Positions 1,235 to 45,140 of a stretch of 64,000 bases of DNA are shown here, piece by piece. Under the pieces are notes generated by a model, which worked only from the letters and a program-made list of their open reading frames with translations, searched no databases and was not told where the DNA came from. The position numbers and the translations under genes were made by a program. This DNA is from Raillietiella orientalis (lineage: Eukaryota), in NCBI GenBank assembly GCA_036172245.1, contig JAYWIR010000004.1, forward strand, positions 1 to 64,000, given 5' to 3'. Numbering within the stretch: position 1 is the stretch's first letter; every line of letters begins with the position of its first letter.

Positions 1235-3368
1235 CACAAGGCGTTCGACTGTGTTGACCAGGATATCCTCTTGGAGCTCCTGGGTCGCATGAGCTTCTTA
1301 CCCTCCTTGATTAACTACCTGCGCTCTTGCTGGCGGAACAGGATAATCTCGATTACTTTCAGTGGACAAAAGTTGTATGGCGTGCCGGTGCGGCGGGAAA
1401 TAAGGCAGGGCGACAGCTTCAGCCCCCTGCTTTTTGGCACCTACGCTGATTTGGTGCTGAGAGCGTACAGGGTGACTTTGACCCCCTTGCCGTGCTCGTG
1501 CCCCGGCACGCCAGCCGTAGCAGCGTATGCCGACGATCTTCTGCCCCTCTTACCTATGTCCACTCCGGCGAAGGCGGTCGGAGATTTCTTTGATTTGCTT
1601 AGCCGTGAAGCCGGATTACAGGTTAACAGGGCGAAGTCGTCAGTGCTGCAAGTTGGAGCGACGTAGGCAGGGAAGCAGTAATGGGTCCGTCTGGGTATCC
1701 CCACGGTGAGGTGCATCAAGTACCTCGGTGTGCCGTTGGGGGACTTCTCCCTTGCGGGAGCGTGGTCCAGCTGCCTCCAAAAAGTCGAGACGGTGATCGG
1801 CCCGTTTCTGGAAAGGCAGTTTCACTTGCCGGAACGCGCCGCGGTTTGGAACGCCTTCGCGGCCCCCATCATTCGCCCCTTGCTTTTTGTTGCCCCTCCC
1901 CCGTTGAATCCTAAAAGCAGAACAAGGACCTCCTCCGCAAATCTCTTTGGGGCAAGAAAAGGCCTTAACTCCCTTGGAAGGACTTGTGCGCTCCGCACAA
2001 GTCCTTCCAAGATTGTCGGCCTCCGGGACGGCGGTCTCAGCATCCTGACGCTGGAGCGCGTGGAAATCTAGCTGCGATGGCGGACCCTCGCCATCGCAGC
2101 AAAGATGTAGAACACCGCTTGGTGCATTCAACACCGCCTCCTGGCCAGGCGTGTGTCCCGCTGCGAAGAACTCGCAGCGTTTCTTCTGTGCCCTGTCCGG
2201 AAGATTCGAAGATGCGGTCTACTGCTCGGCCGCATGGCAACCCTGGCAAAGGAGAACGACTGGATGGTTTGTGGCCCTGCCAACTCCTCCGCTTGGCTTA
2301 AAGAGACTGCTGGCACCTGGGCCAAGCAGAACCAGAGGTGCGAAGACCGGATGAACTGCCTGCGAGTCTGCTCTTACGCCCGCCGAACTCTTCGTGAAAT
2401 TCTTGAATTTCCACCGTATTGCAAGTGGGTGGATGGCACACCCCTTGTTACGGCGATGCCCTTCCTCTAAAGGGCGCTTTACGAAAGCCGGAAGCCAAGG
2501 TGGCAAGTCTGCTGACGTATCGGAGGCAGAGTGAAGATGATGAGCGGCTGGACCATGGGAGAGTTGACAGATGCAACGACCCTAGTCTCCAGCCGCGTGG
2601 ATTAAGAATATGGGGCGAGCTGCTGGGCATACGATTGGATGAACTGAAGAGGCCCCCGGTTCTACTTAAATCCAGGATTCTTTCCCTGAAGTGGCAAGAA
2701 TCAACGTTTCTGTTGCTGCCTTGGGGTCTACCCTGCAACGCGCGCCGCTTCCACTGGACGCGGGGAAGAGTAAATCCTGCGTGTGCCAGGTGTGGGAGAA
2801 GGAGTCGTTCCCCCACCTCTTAGTTGAATGCCCTGCCGTCCAGATTCTTTGGGATCGTTTTAAAAGGGCCCTCCGGATACCGAATGGTGGCATTGTTGGA
2901 TGTGTCTTCAGTCTTGTCTTCGTGCGAGGCGCCCTCAATCCAACCGCAGCCCTGGCAGCACTTTGCTGCATTCGTGGTATTGTGGCGGCCTGGACTGATG
3001 CCGAAGATGAAGACTGCATCGTGAAAGACGTTATCGAGCATGACTTTGGCTTCCTGCAGAGAGCTACCCGATGGCCCCATCTAGGAAAACTGAAAATGGA
3101 ATTAGAAGGCATCCTGCAATGGATGGGCGCTCCCAGTAGTTTTCCGTGATCCTTTCCCGGACCTCCAAACTTTTTTTGTGGTTTGTTTTTCTCTTTAATT
3201 GTGTTTTTGTTTTCTCCCCCATACCCTTCCTCTGCCGAGGAGAGCCAAACCGGGCTGCGTCTCGGTGTCCCGGCAGTTCCGGTATTGCGTGGCCGTGAGT
3301 GGGGCTTTGTACCACGTTCTGTATTGACTGTTGAAATGTGTTTAATAAACGTCCCGGCGTATCCGGGT
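1235..3368 (+). mobile_element. Family B ORF2 3' half (RT to C-terminal Cys motif) plus 3' UTR; pseudogenised
   Basis: HKAFDCVDQ, IRQGDSFSPLLF, AYADD, KYLG, C..C..ESFPHLLVEC across frameshifted ORFs; ends in the terminal hairpin 3344-3368; resembles ORF2 at 23622-27221. Confidence 0.9.
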
Positions 3369-5970
3369 GGCATCGCCGAAACCTGGAGGAAGTTGATGGA
3401 GGGGACACTGGTCACAGAACTCTCGGACTGGGCGTTTTATTTTGCCCCATTCAGCGAGAGTCTGCAGTTCGCAAGTACGGAAGTATGCGCGCAGATGTTC
3501 GCGCGCTCCTGCGATTCACAACCAGTCTCCCGGCTGGCGCCACGCTTCGGAAGGTGGACGTCGGTCGCGCGGATGGATGTTGATCACTAGCCGAGCGTGA
3601 TCGGACAGATCCGACTCAATTGCACCTCGAGTTCCCACCCGCGTACACAAGTGGTTATGAAGGAACACGTGGTCGATTCTGCTTCTCAACACGGCTTCAT
3701 CGGCCAACAAGTTGCGTATGTGCATAGCCGCACACAACTCGTTGACCAATTGTGCTCTTATGTGGGGCGCTCCCGAGAGCAGTCGGACGTTGAAGTCTCC
3801 CGCTATCAGATGCGACCGCCGCACGCCTGCTTCGGCCAGCCAGTCTCGCCGCAGGGCTTCGAAGAACGCAGTGCGTTCTGCGTGCCTGTGGCTGGTGCAG
3901 GGCGCGTACACGTTCGTCACTACGAGGTCGATCGATTCGGATTACTCGAGGAGAAATTGTCCGACTCGACCTTCCTCGTCGAAGTGTGCACTGCGCACCG
4001 CATTGGCGACAGCCCGCTTCAGCAGGAAGGCCACTCCGCGGGAGTGGTCTCCTCCTCTACGATAAAGTAGCCTCCCCACTGTGAGCCTCTCGATTTTCTG
4101 GACGTCCTCTGCTCTGAGGGCATGCACCTCTTGGAGAAGTGCCAGATCGAAAGGTCGCAGGGTGTCGGCCACGCTACGCCTTCTGCTCCCGTTGCGCAGC
4201 TTGTTGACATTCCAACAGTCTATACTCAGTTGCCGGCAAGAGGCGATTCCACCCATCATGCAAATGATGGTGGTAGCGTGTGCATTGCCGCCTCCAGTTC
4301 GGGAGGCGGCTGGTCGTTGTCCATCTGCGGTGGTGGCGTTCCGGCCACGACCGGAACGTCTACAGACGGACTCAGGTCGATAGGAAGGACCGACCGGATT
4401 CTGTCGATGGAGGGATTCCGCGACCTCGCGGACATCGCCTCCTCGCTATCCGAGCGCATCTCCTCCACTTCAGCCTGAGGGGGAGCGACGCGCATAGGGT
4501 TGCGCGACTTCCGGCCCGCCTTCCTCTTCGGAAGGGCGACGGTGGGAGGGTTTCCGGCTTCTGCCTCGGACCCGGAAGTTTCCGGGCACTTAACTTCCGC
4601 CGGACGTCTGACGGCCTTCTTTGCAACCTTAGGCGGCTGCATTAAGGTGGCCGCGAGTTCCTCCGCCGCCTTCGCGAAGTTTTTCTCCTCGCTGCTGCTC
4701 GCGTGTTTATCGCAGGATTCCTGCGGCGGTTCCGCGGCGTTCGCGACGGTTGCGGGAGTCGTTTTCGCCGATCGACGCTCGATCGATTGAACGCGCTCGA
4801 TTGTAACGGTGCATTTCTTTAAAGACTCGCGCGGCGAAATTTTTGGTTTGCCGACCGCGGGTTTCTTGGGAACGCTCGCATTCTGATTTGTATTATTATT
4901 TTTTTTTGGAGTTTTTGTTTTTTTTTGCGTTTCGTTTGTTTTTTGTTCGACACGACTTTCCAGTTTTCCTCGTCGGCAGTTGGCTAAGAAGTCTCCTTTT
5001 GAGGCTCCTGCTCCTTGTGGACGACTTCTTCTTAGGTCGGCTGTTGGTCGCTCGTTTTTTTGTTTTCTGCCTTCTTCCCTCATTTGTCGAAGGGTCTGAA
5101 GGCGTCGTCGCGGCGTTTTTCGGGCACACAGCAATAGTGTGGCCCTTCGCGCCGCAGGTTGGGCATGTAGCATCCGGGCATCTCTTTTTAAGATGCCCGA
5201 ATGTGTTGCACAGCCCACAGTATTTTTCCTTCTCCACTTACCAGAGGTCGACGAGCTCGTCGTTGACCTCCAGCTTGTGGGGAAGTTCTTTGTTTTCGCG
5301 GAGAGTTACGCGTGCGGCCACTCGCCCACTGAATGCGCCTCGATAAGTAAAGGCGTTGGGCTTCGACCACATCGCGTATATCTCCGCGAACTTGTTGATT
5401 TCAGTGCGGATGGCTTCATCGGTCATCCGCATCGTTGTACCAGTGAGGTGGATCACCATAGAGTGTTTCACCGAGTGTGGGAAAAGATTTGCCCTTCGAA
5501 CGTAACGGGCGTGCATAGCAGTTTGTGTGTGAGCGCTGCATCTCTGCAGATCAGCTCCGCGAACTGCCCGCCGCTCCGAATCGAGAAGCAAAGAATCTCC
5601 TCGTCAGAAATTCCCATCCTACGTATGGCGTTTCTAAATCTCCGCATTGTAAGCGGAGAATATAAGTTTCCTACCTTGTAAAGGAGGGCAAGGTTGTAGC
5701 CCTCCTTTATGTAGGCCTGCACTTCGGCGGCCACGTCCGGCGGAGTCGCCGCGGCCACCTTGTTCCACGCCCTCGCCGGGGTGGCGGGGGCTTTTTTTGT
5801 GGTGGGGCATGATCCCACCTCTATAGGTTGGGTAGACGTTGGCCTCACGTCTCCCGTCGCAGCTACTGCGGCGTCTTCAGGCATTTCTGCCTTTCAACGG
5901 CCGCACTTCCAATCCACCCAACAACTAGTCTTGGCTTCGCTCACGGGAGCTGACCAAAAACGCGTGGGGC
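3369..5970 (-). mobile_element. Family E 5' half: ORF1 (5884-4256, frameshifted) and APE endonuclease (4259-3369)
   Basis: CGLCNTFGHLKKRC-CPTCGAKGHTIAVC knuckles; WNVNKL, LQEVH, NVYAP, GDFN, IDH, SDH endonuclease motifs. Confidence 0.9.
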
Positions 5971-8780
5971 ACCGATGCAGGTTTGCTGCATTTTGCGGGA
6001 TTCGTACTCCTCTCTTTACGCCAATAGACCACCAGAGCGACCTTTTGCGCAGCGTCTGCAGCCAGAAGGTGCTTTCGCGTTAATGGAGGACGAACGTCAC
6101 ACCTTCCAAGTGGAATTTACGATGGGGGAGATTGTTTCCGCCATCAAGAATCAAAAAAATAAGGAAGCATCAGAGAGAAACGGCCTGCTAGCTGAAGTTT
6201 ATTAACACTTTGCGGCAGAGTTGGCTCCCATGGTGCTCAATTTACGTTTGCTGATCCGTTAACGCGGCGATGCCCCCAACTCGTTCCAAGCAGCTATAGT
6301 ACGTCTCCTTTCTAAAGGAGGAGACTTGCGCAACGTTGGCAACTGGCGTCCTATCACTGTGGTCAATGTGGACGCGAAGATGCTTACCAAACTCTGGGTT
6401 TAGCGTTTGGGACGGGTAGCGGAATCCGTGGTCAGTCCGGAACAGACATACGCTGTTCCCGGACGAACCATGGAGGCCAACCTGTTCCTCTCCAGCACCT
6501 TTTGGCAGTTCGAACAGCGCAAGGCTAAGCTAGGTCTGGAGAGTCCTGGACTCTTCAATGACCGGGGGAAGGGAAGCCGAGGGAATGATGCGGCGCCCGA
6601 AGCCCTTGCGGTCGCAGTCGATTTGCGTAAAGCTTTCGAATGCGTCGACCAGGTGCTGCTCCTGGAGCTCCTGGAACGCTTGGGATTTCCGACCGTCTTC
6701 CTGGCGTACCTGCGCTCTTGCTGGCGCTTCGCGGTAATTACCATTAATTTCAGCGGCCGGCACGTGTACGGCGTGCCGGTTCGTCGCGACATCCAGCAGG
6801 GTGACAGCTGTGCCCTCTGCTCTTCAGCATCTACCTTGAGTTGGTGCTGAGAGCACACAGGGAGACTTTGGCAACCCTGCCGAGCTCATGTCTCGACACG
6901 CCTGCCATGTCAGGCTATGCCGACGATTTTCTGCATCTGCTTCCCGAATCCACCCCGGCATCGGCGCTTGAAGATTCCTTTGAGTTGCTGAACCGTGGGA
7001 CGGGCTTCGACGTAAACAGGGCATAGTCGTCAATTGTTTTTCCAAAATCGTCGCAAGCAGGACGGTCGGAATGGATCCTCTTGGGGATCCCCACGAACAG
7101 GTACATCAAGAACCTTGGCGTTCCGTTGGGGGACTTCTGCTCTGCAGAAGCCTTGTCCAAACGTTTACAAAAGGTGGAGCTGGCGATCGGCCCGTTCCGG
7201 GACGGCAAGTTTCACTTGCAGGAACGGGCCACTGTATGGAACGCTTTCGCGGCCCCCCTTCTTCGCTTTCTACTTTTTGTGTGCCCTACCCCGTGTCAAA
7301 TTAGGACACGGACTAGGGGCCTTATACGGAAAGCCCTCTGGGGTAACCGGAGGCCCCGCGTCCGGCTCAAAGACTTGTGCGCTCCACACAGGGACGGTGG
7401 ACTTGGTCTCCTGACGTTCAAGCGCATGAAGCGACAGCTCCACTTCAGGAAACTTGCCCTTGTGGCAAAGTTTTGCACAGCACCCTGGTGTGCACCCGCA
7501 AGACTCTTTGCTCACAGCGCAACCGGCTGCTTCGAATTGACTTTAATCCTGGTAGCCAATCAACACAGCCTGAAACATTGTGGTTATCAGTTGCGGGATT
7601 TGGTTGCCCTGATGAGAGACAACCCTTGGATCTCCTGCATCCCAGCGGACTGGACTACCATGCATCAGGAGTCCGTTTCCGCATGGGCGAAGATCAATGG
7701 CACCAGCGATGAGGACTTCTCCTGCCTCCCCAGAGGGAGGCACGCTGGTCAGCCACTCCAGGAGATCGTTTCCAACCCACGGAAACTTCTGTGGTCTTTC
7801 TTCACCCACCTTGCCCCAGTGCTGCTCTCCCTCAGGAAAGTTCGGGACAGCCGCCAGAACGCATCGTGGGAAGTGTCCTGCTTCATCGGAGGCAGAAAAA
7901 AATCACTGAAGGCGTGGACGCCGAAGGAGCTTGCGGACGCTACTACCTCGAGTGTCCCGTCGAACACAATTGTACGTTGGGGCGTGCTGCTCGGCATACC
8001 TCCGGAGCAGGTGAAGTGGCCTTCAGCGTCATGGGACAACGGCACCCTTCCCCTGCATTGGCAGGAGACGGCGTTGCTTCTGCTCCACTGGGGACTTTGA
8101 AGCAGAGCACGCCTGTCTCGCTGGACATCGGGGAATGTGGATGCTAGTTGTGCAGAGTGTGGGGAAAGGGAGACCTTCCCTCACTTGATTCTGGAGTTTG
8201 TTGCGCTCCGCGAAATGTGGGACAGACTCTCGTCGATCCTCGACATTCCGGAGGGTGACCCGAAAAACTTATTCCGATGCCTCCTGACGCGAGACGGCTT
8301 GCCAGCATCCGGGAGCGTAGCAGTGCTTTGCTGCATACGCGGTATCCTGAAGTAGTGGACCGCGTCTAGGAGAGGAAGGACCAGCCGGAATGCGATCCAT
8401 CGGGCAGCCATCTCCCTGGAGAAAGCGTGCCGTTGGCGCCCACTTCGAAAACATTTGCCGGCGCTTGTTCGCATCCCAAACCGGATGCAAAGGCCTGCTC
8501 ACGGCGCACCGTGCTCCCCTTCCTCCCACCCACTCCTTAAGAAACATTGCCTTCCATACGGTTTTCTATTTGTTGTTTTATTTCAATTTATCAGCCACTG
8601 CGCCAATGTGAAGGTCCTTTGCGGCCTACGGGTCGGTAAGGACAAGTACCACTGAACGTTTTTGAACTTCTAGACATCCTGAAGAGGAAATAAGATTTTT
8701 GGTGAAAAAATTCAGACTTTGTTATGGAATTTTTTGAAATCTCAAAAAATTTAATAATAAAAGCCTCTGGTTACCCGGGT
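5970..8780 (+). mobile_element. Family F ORF2 from the post-endonuclease linker to the 3' end; pseudogenised
   Basis: YSSLYA, SPEQTYAVPGR, DLRKAFECVDQ, GYADD, CAECGERETFPHL; degenerate terminal hairpin 8756-8780. Confidence 0.88.
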
Positions 8781-10660
8781 TAAATACCCCGTCGGGTTTC
8801 GTTGAGACTTCGCGTTGCTTTGCGGGGAGCATTGCCTGGCTGCCTACTTTCGATCGGCCGGCACACGCTTTTCAACGAGTTGTCCTCCTCTCGGTGATCG
8901 GAACGGCATCCATTTCAGAGTCCGACCGACGCATGTTCGATCGGATTTCGGCCTTCCTCCAAGTAGTGAAAGGTTTTGCTGGATTGACGGCTGTCCTGTT
9001 GTTATTTTCCGTCACCAGTGCATCGCCTTTGGTGACGGCTACTTTCCCTGCGCGCGCGTTTTCAGCGTGCTCATGCGCAGTTGCACCAGGGACCTTTGCT
9101 GAAGTCTTCTTTACTTAATTACGGTTCTTCACTTCACGTGGCGCCGTAAATGAAGATTGTCCTCCATTGCCATCTTTGAAGCCATCCGCGTCTTTGGACG
9201 GGAGCACTTCCGATGGCTCCGACACGCTCGTCATAGGCGCTGCCTTCGTAAGGGCTTTCAATCCCTTCGTTGGCATGGCATCAGCGCCAGTCGAGAGCTT
9301 GCCCTCCGACTGCGACGGCGTGAGAGGTTTCTCCGCTTGCGCAGTGTTGGACCGCGAAGCGGATTTTAGTTTTCAGACTTTCAAAGTCGACACGGCAAAA
9401 CCCTTCTTACCCGATTTGCGCTTCTCAGCCACTGCAGGAGGTGAAGGAATGGATCTGACGGTACTGGAAGTGTCGATACCGCCGTTGTCCATTGGCGACC
9501 CCGCAGGCTGCTCGAACTCCGAGAGAGCCGAGCGTGCTTGGGAAGGACCGCTATGTCGCCCAGGAGCCCTTACCATTGCCCCGAATTATCCGCAAACTTT
9601 TTTTTGCGGCTCCCCTGTCGCGAGGGGGTGCGCGCAGGGCTTCGCGTGCGAGGCTTCCTGCTGCTTTGGGGCGACATTCCGCCTCGCGTTTTTACGGAAT
9701 TTCTGCCGTGGGTTCTCCGGGTTTTGCAAGGATTTTTTCTTCCCTTCCGCGCTTTGTTTCTTAAGATGGAGCTTTGCGGCTGCCTTTTTTCGCAAAAGAT
9801 CCAAGCAATTTTTCAATTGGTGGACGAAAAGATTGCAATAACGGCATTTTCTGGAGGGGCATTTATCCAAACAAGGCCCCTCCTTCCCGCATTGCTCGCA
9901 CGTTCTTACTTTGCCCACGAACCACAGGTGAACGACCATGTCTTTCACTTGTAGTTTGGTGGGCAGCAGACGGCGGTCCGGCATTGTAAGCCGGACTCCA
10001 GCGACTCCGCTGTGTATGGACGGGAAGTTCTTGAGGTTGCTACGCACCCTCCACAGCGCATGGACCGTGGCGGATTTTGCCAACGCGTTCCGAATATCAA
10101 TGTCGGAGATTTCCGACTCAATGTCGAAAATCTCCGCCACGAATGAGTCGTCCATGGCAGCCGGGAAGACCTTCTGGCCACGGATCGACAACGGGGTGCG
10201 CAGCAAGCGTTGCACAAGTGCAGCGTCTTTGCAACGCACCTTGAAATAGCCCATGTCTTTTACGGGCATAATGGCGAGAAGGTCCTCCTCCCGCACGCCA
10301 ACACGGGTCAGTTCATCGTTGAACTGATTCCCGTCGCGCGCAGAAAGAAAACCACTCACCTTATATCGGAGAGCAGGTCTATAGCCTTGGGCTACGTATG
10401 CCCGCAACTCCGACTCGTCGAGAGGTTTCCCTTTGACGGCTGCTGTGGCAGCAACGTCAGCAAAACTCCTCTCCATTGGCGAGGCAGACGAAGAGGAGGC
10501 GGCCGTCGGTTCCGCGATTGCAGATCCGGACGCTATACCTCCAATTTTAGTAGCTTCGGATTAGGTTGACATTTTCGTCAAAATGCACGACACGAGGATG
10601 GAGCGATTAAAAGCCCGGAGACGAGAGCGAAGAGAAAAATGTTGTCACTCGGTTGAAGTT
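8781..10660 (-). mobile_element. Family D 5' end and ORF1, 3'-truncated
   Basis: ORF 9586..10476 with LPTKLQVKDMVVHLWFVGKVRTCEQC.. and CRYCNLFVHQLKNC, homologous to the other ORF1s. Confidence 0.8.
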
Positions 10661-10664
10661 TTTC

Positions 10665-12861
10665 ACCATGTCACGCCGGGGCGTTTATTAAAAATAAACC
10701 GGTCACAGACGATGCCTTCAACCAAAGAAACGACAAGGAGCAAAAAGAAGTTACCGGCACACAGGAATGGCTAACAAACCGCTTCCAACAACACTGATTG
10801 AGTAGAGGGATAACAAACAATAATCAAAATCTGGAGATAGGGGTAACGGGTCTTTGGTGAAGCTCCGTACTCACGGGGATTCAAATAGAGAGCACCTAAA
10901 ATGTTTCGCAGCCTAATAGGGCGGTAGTGTGAAGAAAAAAAAAAACATCTGAAGAGGGCGAGGGGAAAGGTTTACTGGGTGCTCTGTTGGGTAGCGTCTG
11001 TAAAACGTTGGCGTATACTAGCGAGATCTCTTTTCGTATCCTCGGTCAATTGAGGCCATCTGGCGGCTCCTACCATATAGAAAGATGCTTTGCCGATCAC
11101 CACTTGGTGCTGCTTGTTGATTATCAGCGCCTGGCGGACGGAAACTATCGCGCGTATGCAACCGATCATTGCAACACTTGCGATTGTAGACAGCCCGCTC
11201 GGCGTGAAGAATCGTCGCAGCAAGTCTCTTGCGGTGTCCACGGGATGCATTAGTGCTGTTGCCAGCCTGCGCCACGGTCCTTGTAGGACACCGCAGTCCA
11301 GAAGTAGTTGCGGAATCGACTCCGTCGATCCGGACCGAACGCAGTACGCAGACGCAAGTCCCCCGGAGTCACGATGCCAACGCTCCTTGCACTGAAAACT
11401 CCAGTGAACGAAAAGCATCACGGCTTGTTTCCAAGCAAGGGGGAGCAGCGATCTGTCAATACACTGTGGAGGGACTACAAGTTCTTCGGGGGTGACAGCA
11501 AGTTCTTCTGCTCACCGGAGGAGTCCCTTTGCAGTAACACGAGGAGTGGCGGCGTCCGCCAACTCATCCGCCTTCCAGGCGCCAAGGAGTTTGGTTTTTC
11601 CCGCTAACGTGCAAGAAACCTCCCACCTTGGCGGTTGGCAACTGTCGTTTCTTGCCCTGAGGGAAGACAGCGCTTCGGCAAGAGGCGCGGCAGCCAGGGT
11701 AGAAAACCTCACCTCCTACTGCAGTACTTCTTCCAAGGATCGTGGAAAAAATTGGCGCAAGGAACAAATATCTTCAAAGCGTATTCCCTGGTGCGCCGCC
11801 CAGGATTCAACAGACTCCTGCCGCCAAGCTTCAAAATTCATTGGGCGGCAGGACATCCACGAGTGAACTTCCAGAAGTGCGGTCAACTGCCGCAGTGGAA
11901 ACCCGAAACCCCGCTTTTTGTATTGGGTGCCCGGCAAAAGCGAGAGAAATCCTCCACTGCCGGCGCATCCCCGCAGGAGAATGCATGCTCGCACACACAG
12001 TGGGGATATCCATAGCTGAGCACACAGTGCCAGCAGTCGGAACTGCACCTGCAGTCCGATTAGCTCCATTGTCAGGATTCCCAAACCAGCATACCGACGC
12101 GGAGCTAAGAAATCTTTAAGGCGGATCCTGGATCTCGCCGGACCCCAGAAACCGTTCCTGAGCAGGCGTTTAGCCCGCTGTTTCGCCGCATAGGGGGGGT
12201 CCAAAACGAAATACAGGGGACTGAGGAGGGGGACCACAAAGCTGTTTTAAATAGTCGCCCGTTCTTGCAAGGTAAACTTGTCGTTAATAAACGGGCTGAT
12301 GGCCAACTCTGCTTTCCGAAGACAGTCCGTCCACGCTTCGGCTGAGACGAAAGCGCCCAACGGAACGCCAAGGTACTTAAAGTACCCGCCCGTTAGGATC
12401 CCCAGGCGGATCAAGTCGGACTGCTCCTCCCACGACGCACCCACACGAACGCCCGCGCTCTTCTGTCTGTTCACACTCACGCCCGCTCCCCGACGAATCA
12501 CTTCGAAGAAAACCTCGACACTGGACGCCGGGGTGGACATAAGGAGCAGAAGAAGCAGGTGATCAACGAAGGCGGTCACGGCAGGCGTTCCCGGGCAAGA
12601 GCTTGGCGAGTGAGACAGCGTCAGCCTGTATGCTCTAAGCAGCAACTCAAAGAAGATGCTGAACAGCAACGGGCTTAAGCTGTCGCCCTGTCCGATGCTC
12701 TTACGCACGGAAATACCATACACGCGGCAGTCGCTGAAAGTGATGCAGGTTAGCGCGTGGCGAAAGCACGCGCACAAATACACCAGGAGTTGCGCCGGGA
12801 ACCCAAGGCGTTCCATAATCTCCAAAAGCAGCTCCTGGTTTACGCAGTAGAACGCCTTGTG
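10665..12861 (-). mobile_element. Family C ORF2 3' half plus 3' UTR; pseudogenised
   Basis: HKAFYCVNQ, QGDSLSPLLF, KYLGVPLG, CVRSG..ESIPQLLLDC; terminal hairpin 10665-10689. Confidence 0.88.
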
Positions 12862-14758
12862 CGCTCTAGGGTGCACGTGTTTTCTCAGTGCTCCTCTTGT
12901 CAGGAAGTCTCCCCCAGTGCAAGCGTCGAGAGGTTCGGTGGTCGATCAGGCAGCGATGCCTGACGCGACCACCAGGAATGGCCAGGGGGCAGCGCCAACG
13001 CCGCCCCCAGAGGCGATGGTGGTGGGGGCATCCGCCCCCACAGAATCGGTCCCCGCTGCAGCGCGGGCGTGTAGCGCCGTTGTGTCGGCGCCATCGCCTG
13101 CAGCCGCGGCGGAATTGTCGGCCTATGTGGAGGAGGGGTACAACCCCTCATTGTTCTACAAGATAGGCAATTTATATTCTTTAGAGAGCGCGTGCGCCTT
13201 CTTGAAGGGCATGCGCGCTCTCGATGTGAAAGAGGAGGAGCTTAGCGCTACGACCATCCGCAGCGGGGGTCAGGACGTTGAGGTCATCTGCAAACAAGCA
13301 GAGCTGGCCCAACGACTGCTTAAAACCTACGTTGTGATGGGGACGAGCAGGCTCCTCCCCACTACGGCGGACCGCAGCATGGTGGTCAACCTGTTAGGCG
13401 TGACCGCGCGAATGCGCAAAGAACAGGTTCCCGCCGCTTTAGAACAGTTTAAAACGGTCCACGCGCAGTGGAAGAAAGTTAGTCCTTTCGAGGACTACAC
13501 GGGGCTGCAACACGGCCTCACTGCTGCGCGCGTGACCGTTAGGGAGAACTGCACACTTCCCCACAAACTGGTGGTCGAAGGCGAAACCGTCGACCTCTGG
13601 TTTGTGGGGAAGCCGAAAAAATGTGACTTCTGCAATACGTCGGGCCACCTCAAAAAGAGGTGTCCCAATGTGCAGTGTTAAGCATGCGGCACAATGGGCC
13701 ACACGGAGGATGTGTGCCCAAAAGCAGCAGTGCGGGTGGTTTCCAAGAGAAACCTTAAAAAACGCGCCGGGCTTCTGCAGAAAAGGCTGGCGGAGAAAGC
13801 TGCAGCGAAGGCTGTGCCACCGGCGCCCAAGAACCAGGAAGCACCCAAGACCCCGAAGACCAACGCCGAAAATGTTGAGGGAGCCGGCCAGGAGACTGGG
13901 TGGCAAGTGGCAACGGCCAAAAAATCAGAAAAGGAGAGGAGGATGGAAAAGAAAATCGCCTATTAACAGAAGAAGAAAGAGCAGGGTAGCGCGATAATTG
14001 AAGAGTGCAGCGTCGTTGTGGAACGCGTTCTCGATGTTGCCGAACGCTGCCGGAAAGAACTTGCCGCTACCGACGACCTCCCCTCTGTTGACACAGTCAA
14101 CAGCGAGGGGAGCGAGCCGGCGGCGGCGTCCGTCATCGACACCACCATCGATGACGTAGCCTTCGCGCGAGCCGCGAAGGAGCTGGCAGCCTCGTTGCAG
14201 CCAGAACCCACCAAGGCTGGCAAGAAGGCCGTAAGGCGTCCGGCCTCCCCTCAGGAGTCCCCCACTTCCGACTCCGAGGTGGAGGCCGGAAGCGCAGCCT
14301 CCGTTTCCACGGCACCGCGCAAGAAGGCTGGACGTAAGTCCACAAAGCCAAGGAAGCTCGTCTCCCCCGTCGAAGGGGAAGAGATGGCTTCCGCAAGCGA
14401 GAGTGCCATGAGCGTGGGAAACTCTCGGGACACATCGCCCGAGAGACTCCCACGCACGGACACGGAGGGGATGGAGGGGGTGGAGGCCGAACAGGTGCCT
14501 CAGGTGCCTGAGAAGGCCGAAACCCCCATGGACATCCCGCCAGCCTCGCAAGAGGAGGGCTTTTCCACACCTTAAACTTCCCAGCAGTAATGCCGGGAAT
14601 CTCCTCCCGCCGTCGTCTGCGCATCGCCGTTTGGAACGTGAACGGCATGACAGACGCCGGCAGGAGACGAGACATGGCCGCCCTTCTGGAGTCCTACGAC
14701 CTTGCGCTGCTGCAGGAGATCCACGTGATCTCTGCAGAACAAGCGCAAGAGATTTCTC
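12862..14758 (+). mobile_element. Family A 5' end, ORF1 (about 12957-14575, internal stops) and start of endonuclease (14590-14758)
   Basis: CDFCNTSGHLKKRC knuckle; WNVNGM..LQEIH; TAATG at 14588-14592. Confidence 0.9.
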
Positions 14759-16365
14759 ACCCGGTCACGCCGGGGCGTTTATTCCATATAACATAACCAA
14801 AAAAAAAGCAATTATACAAAATAAACCAGTTGGGAACCAAACTCCCAACCGACGACTGAACATGAATGAAGAGAATATTGCTGGCACGCAGGCAAGAGTA
14901 ACAGTTTTGTGAACGGTGTGAAGGGGCGGGAAACACAAAGAAACCAAAATAAAATAAAAACAATGAATAAGGAGGACGGGATAAGGGTGTTTGGGATCGC
15001 TCTGGAAGACACGGGGATAAAAGCATGGGCACCGGAAATTTTACCGAGCGAACGGGGACGGGGTATGGGTGGGCGAGAGGTAGCAGGGGTCACCGGATTA
15101 CGTCGTTCTCAAAGGTGTGTAAACCGGCGATGTATGCCGGTGATGTCCTCATTCACCTTGTCACGAAGATGAGACCACCTTGAAGCCTTCTCCATGAATT
15201 GAGCTGCAAGCAGGTGAGCCTCCCTTCGCTGCGATGAAAACTCCAGGGCGTAGCGGGCCTTCACGATGGCGCGAACGCAACACATGGTTGCGACAATCGC
15301 GGCAACTGAAAGCCCATTTCTGCTGAAGAAGCGCCGCAGCACATCAATGGCAGTGCCTCCTTGTGGCATGATGGCCGAAGTGAACCTTCGCCACAGTTTT
15401 CAGAGGTCACCGCAGTCCAACAAAAGGTGCGGAAAAGACTCGATCTCTCCGCACCTTAAACAGTTTGGCAAAGCAGCTTCCCCGGAAACGATGCTTCGCT
15501 GCCTATTACAGTGAAATGCACAATGTAAAAAGAGCAGCACATCTTGTTTCCACTCAAGGGGGAACACAGAGCTGTCCAAACAAACGAAGGGAACCACTAT
15601 CTCTCAGGGGGGCACACTTAAATGTTCGCTCCACCGAAGCATTCCCTATGCCCGATTCCGAGGTGTGGCGGCTTGCACCAGCTCCTTTGTCGTCCAGCTG
15701 CCGAGGAGCACACAGACTCCCGCTATTTTGCAGGAGAACTCCCATTCCGCCGGTAGGCAACCGTCGTTGCTTGCCCTGAGGGCAGACCGCGCTACGGCGA
15801 GTGGTGTGGCGGCCAGACGATCCGACAACTTCTTGTCCTGCATGACTTCGTCCATTTGATGACTGAGGAGAAGTCGCAGGCGTCGAAGTTCTTCCGGGCG
15901 CGTTCCTTCGGAAGCTGCCCACGATGAAAAAGATTCCTGCCGCCATGCATTAATGTTCATGGGGCGGCAGGAGATCCAGCTTTGGGCTTCCAGCAGTGAG
16001 GACAGCTGCCTCAGCGGGAAGCCAAACCCTATTCTGGTGTGCCGAAAGTGGGGTAGCAACGAAAGCAGTCCCTCGCTTCCCGTGCAGCGCCTCAGTATAA
16101 GGCGTGCGGGTAAGCACCACGGCGTACACCACAGCTTGGCACAGAGCCGCAGCATGCGAAACTGCAACTGCAGTTCGATGCTGTTTAAGTCGAGGATGCC
16201 CAAGCCTGCATCCTGACGCGGCGCCACCAAGTCTTTAAGTCTAACACGGGATCTTGCAGCGCCCCACAACGCTTTGCGTAGAAGGCGCTGCGCCCAGACT
16301 TCGACTTCCTGGGGGGGTGGACAAACAAAAAACAGGGGGCGGAGGAGGGGGGCCTTGTATATTGA
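14759..16365 (-). mobile_element. Family C-like ORF2 C-terminus plus 3' UTR
   Basis: RVRLKDLVAPRQDAGLGIL, CLRCGEIESFPHLLLDC; terminal hairpin 14759-14783. Confidence 0.85.
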
Positions 16366-16568
16366 TCCAGATTATTTTATTTTGGTTTCTTTGTGTTTCG
16401 CGCCCCCCCACACCGTTCAAGAAACTGTTACTCTGGCCTGCGTTCCAGCAATATTCTCTTCATTCTTGTTCAGTCGTCGGTTGGGAGTTTGGTTCCCAAC
16501 TGGTTTATTTTGTATAATTGCTTTTTTTGGTTATGTTATATGGAATAAACGCCCCGGCGTGACCGGGT
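16366..16568 (+). mobile_element. Short 3' UTR fragment, inverted copy of about 14759-14955
   Basis: Near-identical reverse complement by eye; terminal hairpin 16544-16568. Confidence 0.8.
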
Positions 16569-18257
16569 GAGAAATCTCCCGGGCTTGATCTGCGGAGATC
16601 ACGTGGATCTCCTGCAGCAGCACCAGGTCGAAGGATGCCAGGGTGGCGGCCACGTCACGCCTCTTGCCTTCGTCGCTTAGCCCGTTCACGTTCCAACAGG
16701 CGATCAGAAGACGACGGCGAGAGGCGATTCCCGGCATTATGGCTGGGAAAGTGGCGTCGCGGCACCTGCCGCGGGGCAGGTGTAGGACAGGTCCATCGGT
16801 AAGAGGACGGAGGCCTCTTCAGGCGCCTGGGGAACCTGTTCGGCCTCCACCCCCTCCATCCCCTCCGTGTCCCTGCGTGGGAGTCTCTCGGGCGACGGGT
16901 CCCGAGAGTTTCCCACGCTCATGGCACCCTCTCTTTCGGAAGCCATCTCTTCCCCTTAGACGGGGGAGACGAGCTTCCTTGGCTTTGTATACTTACGTCC
17001 AGCCTTCTTGCGCGGTGCCGTGGAAACGGAGGCTGCGCTTCCGGCCTCCACCTCGGGGTCGGAAGTGGGGGACTCCTGAGGGGAGGCCGGACGCCTTATG
17101 GCCCTCTTGCCAGCCTTGGAGGGTTCTGGCTGCAACGAGGCTGCCAGCTCCTCCGCGGCTCGCGCGAAGGCTACGCCATCGATGCTGGTGTCGTTGACGG
17201 ACGCCGCCGCCGGCTCGCTCCCCTCGCTGTTGACTGTGTCAACAGAGAGGAGGTCGTCGGTAGCGGCGAGTTGTTTCCGGGAGCGTTCGGCAACATCGAG
17301 AACGCGTTCGACAACGACGCTGCACTCTTTAATTATCGCGCTACCCTGCTCTTTCTTCTTCTGTTGGTAGGCGATTTTCTTTTCCATTTCCCTCTCCTTC
17401 TCTGATTTTTTGGCCGTTACCACTTGCTACTCAGTCTCCTGGCCGGCTCCCTCAACTTTTTCGGCGTTGGTCGCCGGGGTCTCGGGTGCGGCCTGGGTCT
17501 TGGGCGCGGGTCGCACAGCCTTCGCGGCAGCTTTCTCCGCCAGTCTTTTCTGCAGAAGCCGGGCGCGTTTTCTAAGGTTTCTCTTGGAAACCACCCCCAC
17601 TGCTGCTCTTGGGCACACCTTCCTCGTGTGGCCCATTGTGCCGCATACTTGGCACTGCACATTGGGACACCTCTTTTTGAGGTGGCCCGACGTATTGCAG
17701 AAGCCACAGTATTTCGGCTTCCCCATATACCAGAGATCGACGGTTTCGCCTTCGACCACCAGTTTGTGGGGAAGAGTGCAGCCCTCCTGAACGGTCACGC
17801 GCGCAGCAGTGAGGCCGTGTTGCAGCCTCGTGTATTCCTCGAAGGGACTAACTTTCGTCCACTGCACGTGGACCGTTCCAAACTGTTCCAAAGTGACGCG
17901 AACCTGTTCTTTGCGCATTCGCGCGGTCACCCCTAACAGGTGGACCACCATGCTGCGGTCCGCCGTAGTGTGGAGAAGCCTGCGCGTACCCATCACAACG
18001 GGGGTTTTAAGCAGTCGTTGGGCCAGCTTTGCATGTTTGCAGACGACCTCAACGTACTGACCCCCGCTGCGGATGGCCATAGCGCTGAGCTCCTCCTCTT
18101 TCACATCGAGAGCGCGCATGCCCTTCGAGAAGGCGCGCGTGCTCTCTAAGGAATATAAATTGCCTACCTTGTAGAACAATGACGGGTTGTAGCCCTCCTC
18201 CACATAGGCCGACAATTCCGCCGCGCCTGCAGGCGATGGCGCCGACACAACGGCGCT
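16569..18257 (-). mobile_element. Family A ORF1 (5'-truncated) and start of endonuclease (16737-16569)
   Basis: ORF 17427..18248 with two CCHC knuckles; WNVNGL..LQEIH; TAATG overlap 16735-16739. Confidence 0.9.
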
Positions 18258-18796
18258 TTACGTCCGCGCTGCAGTGGGGACGTTAAAGTCCCCGGCGATG
18301 AGGTGCGCCCTTCGCATGTCTGCTTCGGCCAGCCAATCTCGCCGCAGGCCTTCGAAGAACGCAGTGCGTTCCCCGCGCCTGTGGCTCGTGCCGGGCGCGT
18401 ACACGTTGGTCACGACGAGGTCGATCACGTCGGTCCACTTGGCAACAAGCTGCCCGATTTGACCTTCCCCGTCGAAGTGCACGTCGCGCAGCGCATTAAC
18501 GACGGCTGGCTTCAGCATGAAAGCCACACCGCGGGTGCGGTCTCTCCCGTTTTGGTATACGAGCCGCCCGCCTGCGATCCGTTCGATTTCCTGGGCCTCC
18601 CCTGCGTGGAGCACGTGCGTCTCCTGCAGAAGCGCCAGGTCGAAGTCCCGCAGGCTGGCGGCCGCTTCTCTCCTCTTGCCGTCGTCGCGCAACCCGTTGA
18701 CGTTCCAACAGATTACGCGCAGTCGCCGGCAGGAGGAGAGTCCACGCGTTGGTGTGTTTATTGTGCTTGCTTACCGTCCTCCGCCTGCTGTTTGCC
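18258..18796 (-). mobile_element. Family E-like ORF1 tail and endonuclease fragment; close duplicate of about 27835-28352
   Basis: LQETH, NVYAP, AGDFN; high nucleotide similarity to the 27.8-28.3 kb segment. Confidence 0.85.
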
Positions 18797-21780
18797 ACCC
18801 GGATATGCCGGGGCATTTATTATTCTAATTTTTTACAAAAATTAGATAATAAAGTCTTTCAAAAGTTAATTGTAGGAACCACTTGGTTTTCCCACCTTGG
18901 TTGACGTGTCTGTTGCCGGTGCATAGACCGGTTAGGTCCATTCCCGAGGCGCATGGGAAGGGAAAACTAGAACAAAAACAAACAAAAAGAGAGATAACGG
19001 GGAAGGAAACAGTTGTATGGGGAGAGAAGGGGGGCAGGGAAGGGATCACTGAGCGCCTGGGTCGGTCCTCCGCCTCCTGTTCAGAATGCAGTCAAGTTCT
19101 GTTTTAACTCTGAAAGGTAGACGCCACCTTGTCGCCTTCTCTAAAGAGATCGTCGTCCAGTGAATGGCGTCCCTGCATCTTGGGCCTCTTCTTCTGGCGT
19201 GCCACCTTTGCACAATGCCGCGCACGCAGCAGAGGACTGCTAGAGACGCGGCGGGGCGCAGGCCGTGACGCAGAAAGAGGCGACGGTAAATTTCCTTAGG
19301 GTCGCCTACTGGAAGATGGAGGATTGGGGCGATTCGACTCCAGAGTCCATCCAGGGCGACACACTCGAGAATGAGATGCGGGAAGGTTTCTCTTTCTCCG
19401 CATTCGACACAGCAGGCATCCACATTTCCCAGTGTCCAGTGAGACAGGCGTGCTCTGCTTAACAGTCCCCAGTGCAGAAATAGCAACGCCGTCTCCTGCC
19501 ACTTCAACGGAAGTGTGGCGCAATCCCAACACGCTGGGGGCCACTTCACCTCCTCCGGAGGTATTGCGAGCAGCTCTCCCCAGCGCGCAAGTCCGTGAGG
19601 CGGGACGCTCGGAGTGGCAGCGTTAGTGAGCTCCCGAGTCGTCCACGCCTTTAAAGGTTTTTTCCTGCCTCGGATGAGGCAGGACACTTCCCACGATGCC
19701 AGCTCGTTGCTGCTCCTACTGTTTTTCAGGGAGGACAGAACGGGGGCAAGGGGGCTGGAAGAAGCCCACAGAAACTTCCGGGGCGTGTTGATAATATCCT
19801 GCAGCGGCTGTCGAGCGTACGGTCCTCGTCGTAGGCAGTTGTATTCCGCCTCGCTCGTGCCGTTGATCTTAGCCCACGCGGAAGCTGACTCCTGAAGTCA
19901 GGCAGTGCAGTTCGCGGGGATGCAGGAGATCCAGGTATTCTCCCTCATCAGGGCGACCATCTGGCGCAAATCGGGGCCACAGTTGGAGAGGCTGCGCTGG
20001 TAGGCCACGAGGATCGAGGACAATCCTTCGCAGCCGGTCGCTCTTCTGGCGAGGAGCCGTGCCGGATCGCACAATGGCGTCATCCATAAGCTAGCCGCAA
20101 GGGCTAACTTTCGAATTGTTGTTTGAAGTTGGATGCGCTCCAACGTAAGGAGGCCCAAGCCACCATCCCTGCGTGGAGCGCACAAGTCTTTCAATCGGAC
20201 TCGCGACCTCGCTGTGCCCCAAAGGGCAGTCCTCAAGCGGGCTTTGGTCCGTCTCTGTATGATGGGAGGGGCGGGGCAAACAAAAAGTAAGGGGCGAAGG
20301 AGGGGGGCCGCGAACGCGTTCCACACCGCGGCCCGCTCCTGCAAGTAAAACTTGCTGTTCCGGAACGGGCCGATCGCCAACTCCACCTTTTGGAGACGGT
20401 CGGACCAGGCTTCTGCAACGCAGAAGTCCCCCAACGGAACGCCAAGGTACTTCAAGCACCTGCCCGTGGGGATCCCCAAGCGGATCCAGTCCGGCCGTCC
20501 GGCCCACGCCGCATGGTTGAATAGTTGTGGTGATGTTGTAACGATGGAAGATTTCTCTCTGTTCACCTCGAGGCCCGTCCCGCGGCGCAGCAACTCAAAG
20601 AAATCTTCGAGCGCCGACGCCGGGGTGGACCCGGGGAACAGGAGCAGAAGGTCGTCGGCGTAGGCCGACACGGCAGGCGTGCCGGGACACGAGCTTGGCA
20701 GGGTTGCCAGAGTCTCCCTGTATGCCCTCAGCACCAGCTCGAAGTAGATGCTGAAGAGCAAGGGGCTCAGACTGTCACCCTGCCTTATGCCACGCCGAAC
20801 CGGCACGCCGTACACGTGCCGGCCGCTAAAAGAGATGTTGATTAGAGCGAAGCGCCAGCAGGAGCGCAGGTAAGCCCGGAAGACGGCCGGGAATCCCAAG
20901 CGTTCCAGGAGCTCCAGAAGCAGTTCCTGGTCGACGCAATCGAACGCTTTACGCAGATCGACTGCGACCGCAAGGGCACCGGGCGCGGCTCTTCCATGAA
21001 GGGCGTCCCCTCCCTGGTCAGAGGAGAATCCAGGATTCTCTTGACCTCCCTGGTCTTCGCTTTGTTGCAACTGCCACCATGTACTGCAGAGGAACAGGTT
21101 GGCCTCCATGCTTCGTCCGGGAACAGCGTATGTCTGCTCCGGACTCACCACGGATTCCGCCACCCGTCCCAGTCGCTCAGCCCAAAGCTTGGCAAGCAAC
21201 TTCGCATCCGCATTCACTACTGTGATGGGACGCCAGTTGCCTACGTTGCGATTGTCTCCTCCTTTCGGCAGGAGACGTACTCTAGCTGACCGGAACGATT
21301 TGGGAACGTCCCCTTGTTCTCGGATCAGCATGCATAGCCGATGCACCAGGGGGGCCAGCTCCGCCACGAAGCCTTGGTAGAACTCCGCGGGCAGACCGTC
21401 TTCTTCTGGTGCTTTTCTCTTTCGAAGCTTTCCGATGGCGGAGACGATCTCCGCCATCGAGAAAGGCTCCGCGAGTTCATGTGCCTGCTCCTCCTGCAGC
21501 GCGGGGGCGCCTTGCGGCAGCAAGCGCTGCGCCACGGCGCGCTCCGTTGTTCTACGCGCGTACAAAGAGGAGTAATAGTCCCGCAGGATGCGGTTTATTC
21601 TCGCCGGAGCTAAGCATTCTTGACCTTGGGCGTCCAGCAAGCTGGGCGACCCGGATTGCCAGGTCTGTCGCTCAGCCCCAGCTTTATACTCCGCCAGGCG
21701 TCGAACGTCGGGAGTCCTAGAGTAAAGACGGGCGTGGTGGTATGCCCGGTCGTTCCTCAGCCCTCCGCCGAAACCCTTGG
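18797..21780 (-). mobile_element. Family F ORF2 (linker, RT, C-terminus; one internal stop near 19898) plus 3' UTR
   Basis: APEEDG, WRPITVVNADAK, DLRKAFDCV, GIRQGDSLSPLLF, AYADD, KYLG, CVECGERETFPHLILEC; terminal hairpin 18797-18821. Confidence 0.92.
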
Positions 21781-21871
21781 CGAGTGGACGTGTGTTTCCT
21801 TCGCTCCCGAGTGAGTCGACAGGAAGCGGTTTTTTGTTGTGTTGTTTAGTGTGGAACATCGTTGGTGTCCG

Positions 21872-27221: not shown

Positions 27222-27421
27222 TCCCTTCCCTGCCCTCCAACTTCTTTTTGTTTGTTTCGTTTTATTTTACTTTTTGTCTCATCCCCATCCCCCTTCGCTG
27301 TCGGGGAGTGCCACGCCGGGCTGCGTCCCGGTGTTCCGACAGGTCCTGTGTTTACGGCCGTGGTGGGGCCTTGTACCACGCATGTGAAGTTTATCAATAA
27401 ACGCCCCGGGCGTACCCGGGT

Positions 27422-32816: not shown

Positions 32817-32819
32817 AAT

Positions 32820-44502: not shown

Positions 44503-45140
44503 AATAAACGTCCCGGCGCAAACTGGTAAGGAACGATCACGCAGCACGGACGTGCGCTGTTGTGGATCTCTGAGCGTGTTTTTAGTTTGCCTGCACTGCC
44601 GGTTCTGCCTTGCATCGGCGAGAAATTTTGCCTCGGTCGTCAACGCCGAGGCAGCCAACGGAGCACCCCACAATGCAGAGCTGCGGGCATATGTAGTTCT
44701 AGGCTACAAGTCCGCTCTCTGCTGCACGGTCAGTGCCTTGAGAACGAATGGAGTGGGTGACAAACGCCGCGACGAGCTTGACGGCATCAGGGTGCGGGAG
44801 GATGACCATCTGGCTGTGATGCCCGTAAGTGCACTTGGACATTAGGAGGTGCACTGCAAAAAAGCAGCTCTCGTCTAGCGCCTGCTACGCACCCCGCTGA
44901 ACATCCGCGGGAAAATCGTCCCCTCGGCCATGGACCAGTCGTTCTTTGTCCAATTATCCGCCATCCGTGCGAAAACTTCCGATCGCGAGCTCCTGAGCGC
45001 GCTGGGGGCATTCGCTACGGTGCACGCTCTGTGAAGAATAGCAAACCTAATCAAAAGGATCGCATCCCTCCACAGCGAACTCGCGACGGCGCGAATCATC
45101 AGGGCGGACCGGTGGCTCTTGTCTTCGGAGCTCAACTACG
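44503..45140 (+). mobile_element. Terminal hairpin followed by a degenerate family D-like 5' end/ORF1
   Basis: ELRAYVVLGYKSAL, VREDDHLAVMPV, RLLRTPLNIRGK similar to ORF 9586..10476. Confidence 0.75.

Follow-up and report, generated by a model that had tools for sequence, protein, structure and literature searches.

Divergent L1-like retrotransposons in a 64-kb window of Raillietiella orientalis end in a common AATAAA-hairpin motif, a candidate 3′ recognition module

We analyzed a 64,000-nucleotide stretch of Raillietiella orientalis DNA (GenBank assembly GCA_036172245.1, contig JAYWIR010000004.1, positions 1 to 64,000 of the forward strand; hereafter the window), in which long interspersed nuclear elements (LINEs) resembling L1 end in a common terminal motif of 25 nt, AATAAA-YGN-CCCGG-loop-CCGGG-T. 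The plus strand at 3344-3368 reads AATAAACGTCCCGGCGTATCCGGGT, and the motif is present in 11 copies, all inside 1-44.6 kb of the window. LINEs have been divided into a stringent type, whose reverse transcriptase (RT) recognizes a 3′ stem-loop, and the relaxed type of L1, which relies on the poly(A) tail, and the relaxed type has been proposed to derive from the stringent one, as outlined in PMC4176376. With modest confidence, we favor the view that the motif is a 3′ recognition module of the stringent type combined with a poly(A) signal, which would fix the start of reverse transcription. The copies (h1 to h11) and the elements that end in them are the following:

h1, 3344..3373, plus strand: pre-stem CGT, stem CCCGG/CCGGG, loop CGTAT, then T and the tail GGCAT; 3′ end of element A
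Open reading frame (ORF) 2 of element A, residues 522-1151, 1235-3140, plus strand: upstream of h1
h11, 8756..8786, plus strand: decayed, 5′ arm CTCTG; 3′ end of element Bs
ORF2 of element Bs, residues 302-1150, 5969-8502, plus strand: upstream of h11
h2, 10659..10689, minus strand: decayed, 3′ arm CATGG, tail GAAAAA; 3′ end of element R, followed in a head-to-tail junction by the 5′ end of element S
h3, 14754..14783, minus strand: intact, loop CGTGA, tail GAGAA; 3′ end of element Q, itself an antisense insertion near the ORF2 start of element P
h4, 16544..16573, plus strand: in-situ duplicate of h3 on a 3′ untranslated region (UTR) fragment of ~195 nt, inside a 90% inverted duplication (13049-14957 / 18281-16372) that also holds h3
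h5, 18791..18821, minus strand: intact, pre-stem TG, loop CATAT, tail GGCA(AA); 3′ end of element M
h6, 27396..27426, plus strand: intact, 6-bp stem CCCGGG/CCCGGG, loop CGTA, then T and the tail GGCAA; 3′ end of the intact element
h7, 32792..32822, plus strand: intact, loop CGCAA, tail AATAAA; 3′ end of element N, adjoining element O at ORF2 residue ~302
h8, 35540..35569, plus strand: intact, pre-stem TG, loop CACAT, tail GTGAA; 3′ end of element O
h9, 40342..40372, plus strand: intact, loop CGTGA, tail GATAAA; 3′ end of an R-like fragment, followed in a head-to-tail junction by a LINE 5′ end
h10, 44503..44533, plus strand: decayed, 3′ arm ACTGG, loop CGCAA, tail AAGGAA; followed by a 5′ end with ORF1 (44618-45145)

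The first A of AATAAA stands at 3344, 8756, 16544, 27396, 32792, 35540, 40342 and 44503 on the plus strand and at 10689, 14783 and 18821 on the minus strand. The pattern AATAAA-N0-10-CCGG-N3-9-CCGG matched exactly eight times, against 0.00 matches expected from 100 dinucleotide shuffles, and the hairpin pattern CCCGG-N3-9-CCGGG matched ten times against 0.56 expected, a count that 0 of the 100 shuffles reached; two of these ten matches (4571 and 20875) are unrelated palindromes without AATAAA. A fuzzy scan added three decayed copies. When a covariance model was built from the 11 copies it recovered, by construction, exactly those 11 in the window (E <= 1.1e-5), and the other two of its 13 rows up to E 10 were noise (E 3.8 and 7.2). 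None of the 11 copies deviates in AATAAA, in the 3-nt length of the spacer or in the T that follows the stem. An earlier note on this DNA had described AATAAA followed by a CCCGG/CCGGG hairpin in eleven copies, as the pattern, fuzzy and covariance scans confirm. It had also described a conserved stem with a variable loop; the loops that it listed are all there, with GCGTAC as an addition, and the stem is intact in eight copies and decayed in the other three (8756, 10689 and 44503).

Nine of the 11 copies lie 175-411 nt downstream of the ORF2 C-terminus of an L1-like LINE, and the remaining two (16544 and 44503) are short 3′ fragments. No ORF2 similarity was found upstream of h10 (44503), which is probably a short 5′-truncated copy. 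The covariance model found no copy between 44.6 and 64 kb, a non-LINE region of 19.4 kb. A host target repeat, which the earlier note would have accepted had the motif occurred mainly without elements, is excluded in the window, as no copy stands outside a LINE context. The number of independent events is smaller than 11, with the copies at 14783 and 16544 being in-situ duplicates and the junctions at 10689 and 40342 sharing 77% identity. Rfam gave 0 matches at gathering thresholds over the whole window, and a tRNA scan of the window returned nothing. A word-based (not sequence-based) search of the open-access literature found no description of a LINE terminus made of AATAAA and a CCCGG hairpin.

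Among the seven independent copies, namely those sharing no duplication, the 25 nt have a mean pairwise identity of 84.6% (range 73-96%). The six consecutive 25-nt blocks upstream reach 43-48% and the block beyond the tail 46%, compared with 45.8% for shuffled 25-mers, which agrees with the initial claim that the motif is the common 3′ end of retroelements whose 3′ UTRs differ. In an ORF2 tree (clade supports 100/100, 100/99 and 89/92), N, R and Q group together, A groups with the intact element, and O, Bs and M3 form the third clade; synonymous divergence between the clades is saturated. Pairwise, the carrier ORF2s show 37-68% amino-acid identity, a synonymous divergence (dS) of 0.57 to >1.8 and a ratio of nonsynonymous to synonymous divergence (dN/dS) of 0.20-0.45, against 0.65-0.97 in the local duplicates P/P′/W0 of the same window, so the carriers diverged as active lineages. 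Judged from these comparisons, the motif is retained through the whole divergence of active lineages. The three copies that lost the stem are all on broken elements; this decay in dead copies argues that selection acts during the retrotransposition cycle, not at the resident locus.

We give next to no credence to the notion that the 25 nt have no function and were left by common ancestry, by recombination between families or by a few events multiplied by segmental duplication. It can appeal to the local duplications, which are common (blocks of 80-94% identity, and the high dN/dS of P/P′/W0), to h3 and h4 being one event, and to the pairs h1/h6 and h2/h9, whose motifs differ at 3 of the 25 positions, not far below the divergence of their flanks. 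Nevertheless, the motif holds 73-96% in every pair, although between clades the synonymous sites have reached saturation and the 3′ UTRs show random-level identity, and over such divergence neutral retention is not credible. As a separate observation, element R (10664-12861, minus strand) looks like a mosaic, its first ~650 nt (12205-12861) being 80% identical to A and the remainder nearest to N, which suggests recombination or template switching between lineages.

The exact end of the motif-bearing elements could be read from the sole intact copy:

Intact element, 21776..27426, plus strand: 5651 bp, with the GGACGTGT motif in its 5′ UTR and a 3′ UTR of 175 nt followed by h6
ORF1 of the intact element, 21881-23476, plus strand: 545-residue frame with a borderline zinc knuckle
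ORF2 of the intact element, 23760-27221, plus strand: 1153-residue frame (frame boundaries as listed) with an apurinic/apyrimidinic (AP) endonuclease and an RT

The 10-mer CGCCGAAACC is found exactly at 21766-21775 on the left and at 27427-27436 on the right of this element, as its target-site duplication. The element is therefore delimited to 21776-27426 and ends in CCCGGGT-GGCAA, five bases past GGGT. It was inserted in the opposite orientation into the minus-strand element M, whose halves (18791-21775 and 27427 to ~30000) read NRLPPGFG|GGLRNDRAY once the insert and one CGCCGAAACC copy are taken out, a reading that matches the DRLPPGFGEGARNHRAY of the intact element itself. The right copy of the duplication is antisense to the G-F-G codons (ORF2 residues ~250-253) of the host element M. 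In addition, in one contig from a DNA sequencing run, position 21776 is connected to position 24498 of the opposite strand, the arrangement that an M-like copy lacking the insert would show.

At the other junctions the flank is LINE sequence, so the border is fixed by homology. We read these borders as GGCA|AACAGC (where AA is common to the target), GAGAA|ATCTC and AATAAA|CCACGG, and the tails GATAAA and GAAAAA stand directly before LINE 5′ ends. The tails are 4-6 nt long, purine-rich and end in A or AA, following the pattern GRNA(A), with no tandem repeat and an A-run of <=5. A long poly(A) tail is absent from all 11 copies, as had been noted at the outset. The hairpin stops 5-7 nt short of the element end, and the element DNA ends 24-25 nt after the AATAAA hexamer in all copies. 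Two details of the earlier description have to be revised. Foreign sequence was thought to begin right after GGGT; the target duplication keeps GGCAA inside the element, and the other tails are 4-6 nt long. The trinucleotide AAC, which had been read as a hint of a cut preference, is not clearly a cut motif: its A's close the tail and its C is where the target begins, and the four reconstructed targets (CTC^CGCC, CTG^AACA, TCG^ATCT and GTC^CCCG) have no obvious consensus. The verified nick follows TTTCGGCG on the primer strand and is not a T-rich site, hence it offers no T-rich primer that could pair with an A-tail. At three junctions (h2, h9 and h10) the tail is joined straight to the 5′ end of another element.

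Under the reading that we favor, the module would have three parts: the poly(A) signal AAUAAA, with cleavage ~23-25 nt downstream, just past the hairpin; a 5-bp GC hairpin whose 5-nt loop differs between clades; and an invariant U followed by a purine tail of 4-6 nt (GRNA plus A or AA). The element RNA would end in CCGGGU-GRNA, with or without added A's. The ORF2 protein may bind the hairpin on its own RNA in the stringent manner, and this binding would set the start of target-primed reverse transcription a few nucleotides downstream. With the start fixed, only the first 1-3 A's or a natural oligo-A end would be copied, which would account for the lack of a long A-tail. Integration would proceed with a target duplication of ~10 bp at GC-rich sites and would need no T-rich primer, and the tail-to-5′-end junctions at h2, h9 and h10 may come from template jumping, end to end, onto an RNA that has no long A-tail. 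We infer the binding by the protein, the 3′ end of the RNA and the position where reverse transcription starts from the arrangement of the DNA copies.

This arrangement has several counterparts among known systems. According to PMC4176376, ZfL2-1, ZfL2-2 and UnaL2 require a 3′ stem-loop, which is bound in a loop-specific manner by the linker between endonuclease and RT in ORF2; for ZfL2-1 and ZfL2-2, it is the loop that confers cognate specificity. In the elements of the window, this linker (about residues 256-301) is the least conserved part of ORF2. Like these members of the L2/CR1 group, the elements studied here have a stem-loop at the very end of the 3′ UTR, few terminal nucleotides and no long A-tail, and they too combine a common stem scaffold with loops that differ between lineages. 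The conserved stem-loop falls within the last ~50 nt of the element, and a short defined tail stands in place of a long poly(A). Nevertheless, our elements are L1-like by ORF2 rather than L2/CR1, their hairpin is shorter (5 bp, no bulge) and is preceded by AAUAAA at a fixed distance, and the tail is GRNA(A), while UnaL2 and ZfL2 end in a tandem terminal repeat unit. A partner short interspersed element (SINE) is also missing here, as no non-autonomous partner or SINE with this tail was found in the 64 kb, where the covariance model finds only the 11 LINE-associated copies. On these comparisons the module would resemble the stringent type of 3′ tail most in function.

The R2 protein binds a structured 3′ UTR and starts its cDNA at a defined position of the RNA without pairing between primer and template, and R2 proteins jump to further 3′ UTR RNAs, with head-to-tail repeats reported, as presented in PMC11371274. 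The fixed short tails and the three tail-to-5′-end junctions of the window are alike in this respect. R2 differs in that it uses a restriction-like endonuclease and has only one ORF, in its long and folded 3′ UTR and in its specificity for 28S rDNA, whereas the ORF2 of the window carries an endonuclease of the AP type and stands much nearer to L1. Altogether, the terminus is most likely a known principle, a 3′ handle for the reverse transcriptase, in what appears to be a new form.

The loops follow the ORF2 clades: CGTA(T/C) in A and the intact element, CAYAT in M3 and O, CGTGA in R and Q, and CGCAA in N. Between the arms of h6, GCGTAC adds a sixth G-C pair through a G insertion and a T-to-C change, the one hint of structure that the stem itself offers. 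The earlier note had proposed a signal common to several families that would allow trans-mobilization. We do not favor this proposal, since the loops track the ORF2 clades in the way of the cognate specificity of ZfL2 and the window contains no non-autonomous partner; the data fit a lineage-specific use of a common scaffold at least as well. Such clade-specific loops on a common stem would constitute a natural experiment in the co-evolution of RT and RNA, and with one intact copy at hand direct tests of recognition are possible. Even if the motif turned out to be ordinary, it is a precise marker for annotating the 3′ ends of the family.

The same terminus could instead be mainly a signal for 3′-end formation, a self-contained device for cleavage or termination or a stabilizer of the RNA end, with an RT that has no specific need of the hairpin. 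Such a device would make the element independent of flanking downstream elements, or would stabilize an RNA end with few or no added A's, and the short tails would reflect the position of the RNA end. We regard this as rather unlikely on its own, though it is not exclusive of a recognition module, with which it is compatible. The invariance of AATAAA in all 11 copies, always 3 nt before the stem, speaks for it. Poly(A) sites usually lie 10-30 nt after the hexamer, and the end placed ~23-25 nt past it falls within that range. The tails take the form NNNA plus A(A), three of them with GGCA, which resembles a CA cleavage site, and at junction J5 AA is common to the target, as if a short A-run had annealed to the primer. 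What it leaves unexplained is that integrated copies keep 1-3 A's if the RNA is polyadenylated, and that loops are clade-specific on an invariant stem; further difficulties are the internal AATAAA of the intact element and the lack of a histone 3′ stem-loop or other Rfam match at gathering thresholds.

The resemblance to the 3′ stem-loop of histone mRNA is that the RNA would end a few nucleotides past a short GC-rich hairpin with no poly(A) tail. The histone consensus has another stem length, another loop size and other flanks. We rejected a histone-type stem-loop on these differences, on the absence of an Rfam match and on the AAUAAA present upstream of our hairpin; moreover, a downstream U7-binding element would fall outside the retrotransposed copy.

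Several observations weigh against a recognition module read as RNA. All the evidence comes from one 64-kb window, and the target duplication was verified for one element only. Nothing close was found elsewhere: an ORF2 protein search of a public collection gave 43 matches, the best of them 21-31% identical, and a pattern scan of metagenomes gave 17 loci with LINE ORF similarity in 0 of the 17 (tblastn), which we rejected as relatives and consider chance or prokaryotic hairpins. The isolated hairpin has about -8.4 kcal/mol and appears, with at least 4 of 5 pairs, in the minimum-energy fold of six of the seven intact copies folded, and the remaining one, h3, folds otherwise in spite of being intact. 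Compared with dinucleotide shuffles, the folding z of intact copies is only -0.13 to -0.98, which is not significant. None of the five pairs of the core stem shows a compensatory change, as they are invariant, or broken in decayed copies only, and without covariation in the core pairs the stem may be read as sequence, or as DNA in the form of a palindrome. Finally, the intact element carries two further sense-strand AATAAA in its ORFs (22694 and 25739; ~0.3 expected from composition), so the hexamer alone cannot define the end.

Other possible pairings were considered around the hairpin. A candidate 3-bp pseudoknot joins the pre-stem AYG with CRU of the loop; one of its pairs is C-G in seven copies, U-A in two and A-U in one, with no single-sided change, and its covariation score was reached by 4 of 500 shuffles. 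The three variants all belong to the same ORF2 clade, and each of the two changes is a CpG transition; we treat the AYG-CRU pseudoknot as only a lead. An extension of the stem by pairing between pre-stem and tail was rejected, being consistent in one copy only (alignment by eye). In the 51-52-nt 3′ UTR stretches of h1, h6, h8 and h9 that were folded, AAUAAA(C) can pair with U-rich sequence located upstream of it (UUUAUU or a similar stretch), forming a second, AU-rich hairpin beside the GC hairpin; in the alignment, UUUAUU also lies upstream of AATAAA in h2 and h5. The AU-rich hairpin could occlude or present the poly(A) signal.

The position of the elements within one another also bears on how they land. 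A third copy of the 10-mer was found after element A:

Third CGCCGAAACC copy, 3374..3383, plus strand: directly after the h1 tail, with element A lying in the M-like element B

Element A and the intact element stand at the identical nucleotide in two different M-like hosts (B and M), antisense of the G-F-G codons. The region 1235-4696 is collinear with 25323-28754 at 73.7% identity. The dN/dS is 0.39 for A versus the intact element and, for B versus M, 0.34 in the endonuclease and 0.23 in ORF1, against 0.65-0.97 in true local duplicates, which shows that the insertions were two independent events (n=2) and not a single duplicated junction. The equivalent site of the intact element itself (24498-24507, one mismatch) is empty, and the insertions do not all have one target in common, as the four reconstructed targets differ. 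For the longer collinear pair 1235-8786 / 25323-32822 we rejected 3′ transduction or segmental duplication, given that all pairs have a dN/dS of 0.23-0.39 and that Bs is nearer to M3 than to N.

Three copies of different lineages, all 5′-truncated, begin within ~10 nt of each other at ORF2 residue ~300:

Start of Bs, 5961-5975: truncation start
Start of N, 29995-30005: truncation start
Start of O, 32823-32830: truncation start

The sequence of the intact element at this residue is CGTCCCCGGCG and is similar to the 5′ half of the hairpin. An RT pause site was rejected there, as no exceptional RNA fold was found (z -0.6 and -1.2). Several full-length copies have their 5′ end head-to-head against a truncated copy (W0|A, B|Bs, M|N and R|P), and twin priming from two RNAs is unsupported for the M/N/O complex, whose outer flanks are not contiguous. 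We tentatively propose, as a possibility short of an even chance, that the hairpin-tailed L1-like lineages land at defined sites in each other's ORF2 and in this way build a nested cluster. Nested antisense insertion at preferred sites would explain most of the arrangement of the cluster, the alternative being a truncation hot spot together with template jumping. If this proposal is true, it would describe an element of the L1 superfamily with both stringent RNA recognition and sequence-directed self-nesting, and if insertion at the same nucleotide holds genome-wide, LINE clusters would grow by self-targeting and not only by passive accumulation.

Target-specific LINEs with an AP endonuclease are known in the Tx1 group, R1 and TRAS/SART, in which insertion recurs at one nucleotide of a repeated target. 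The pair of independent insertions in the window, which entered ORF2 of a sister LINE at one and the same base, is similar to this. The difference is that the target here would be coding sequence that belongs to another LINE lineage, entered on the antisense strand, and that other lineages are found at other sites.

These junctions also bear on the idea that the palindrome acts as DNA, as a landing or recombination site, so that resident hairpins or sequences resembling them attract new copies, giving rise to the tandem and nested order of the elements, and the conservation reflects targeting. We consider this improbable. As DNA, CCCGG/CCGGG forms a perfect palindrome, in three of the 11 copies the tail is directly followed by another element's 5′ end, and the three independent truncated copies start within ~10 nt of the hairpin-like site CGTCCCCGGCG in ORF2. 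Nevertheless, no hairpin is interrupted by an insertion, the sole insertion with a verified duplication is in ORF2 codons unlike the hairpin, the four reconstructed targets have no common palindrome and the motif is lost in dead copies (3/11), and template jumping explains the tandem junctions equally well.

The cluster is also rearranged in place. Recent local duplications pair 13049-14957 with 16372-18281 (90%, inverted), 1-1005 with 17277-18281 (92%) and 18278-18792 with 27838-28352 (94%); by the last of these, the region between the ORFs of M and the start of its endonuclease were copied directly after the 3′ tail of M itself.

With regard to the proteins, ORF2 of the intact element matched RVT_1 with 80.3 bits and Exo_endo_phos with 21.1 bits, under the cut-off of 24.5, and its ORF1 matched zf-CCHC at 20.7 bits, borderline to the cut-off of 20.8; the domain search gave no L1 ORF1p family match in ORF1. 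Three ORF2 copies gave zf-RVT at 22.8, 26.2 and 17.8 bits, all under the cut-off of 27.5, and this domain was not reported for the intact ORF2. The best PDB match of ORF2 is human L1 ORF2p (E 1.9e-48), R2-type proteins following at 6.7e-16 or weaker, and by ORF2 similarity the hairpin-tailed elements are placed closest to the L1 superfamily. With ORF1 and ORF2 as queries, tblastn found about a dozen further copies on both strands, 31-69% identical and mostly frameshifted or truncated. Among sequencing runs, the element was found in a single DNA run (0.52 of its words), which may be the source sample, and no RNA run was listed with it. From this DNA run, 410 contigs were aligned and 248 of the 410 are <90% alike, which indicates many diverged copies.

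Like mammalian L1, the elements have two ORFs, of which ORF2 has an N-terminal AP endonuclease and an RT; they duplicate the target site, are often truncated at the 5′ end and carry AATAAA close to the 3′ end. The target consensus of L1 is TT/AAAA. In contrast, the elements of the window have no poly(A) tail (11/11) and GC-rich targets, their ORF1 has a borderline zinc knuckle and no L1 ORF1p family match, and their GC content is 62%. Two L1 hallmarks are therefore missing from them, namely a poly(A) tail and a T-rich target. For human L1 and Alu, too, a conserved stem-loop in the 3′ UTR has been predicted, according to PMC5135761. An L1-like group with a poly(A) signal, a conserved terminal hairpin and an oligo-A tail would sit between the stringent and relaxed types.

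At the opposite end of the elements, GGACGTGT(K)TTT is a conserved 5′-terminal motif located 11-18 nt from the 5′ end of full-length copies, at the following sites:

21776-21800: GGACGTGT(K)TTT site
1210-1235, minus strand: GGACGTGT(K)TTT site
12862-12890: GGACGTGT(K)TTT site
40373-40395: GGACGTGT(K)TTT site
44534-44555: GGACGTGT(K)TTT site

The region is likely an internal promoter or initiator.

The first 40 kb of the window (1-40 kb; 52-63% GC) are a dense nested cluster of non-LTR retrotransposons, followed by other repeats at 40-52 kb (45-48% GC) and by DNA of 32-39% GC at 52-64 kb. The intact element has 62% GC and 73% GC at third codon positions (GC3), and all three deep LINE clades share these values (62% GC / 73% GC3), in sharp contrast to the adjacent host-like DNA of 32-39% GC. 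In the latter, 55694-56113 on the minus strand is an exon of a USP30-like ubiquitin hydrolase, whose best named relatives are from bivalves, an annelid, a nemertean and cephalopods (31-54% identity); judged by these relatives, the host would be an animal and probably a spiralian. Finally, a repeated unit occupies 40700-52000, with an ORF at 41847-42512 (plus strand) that matches PF00910, the superfamily 3 (SF3) "RNA helicase" of small viruses (E 1.1e-4). Partial repeats of this unit lie near 47124, 49032 and 51523, with C strongly in excess of G on the plus strand, and the repeat is possibly an endogenous virus-like or other mobile element.

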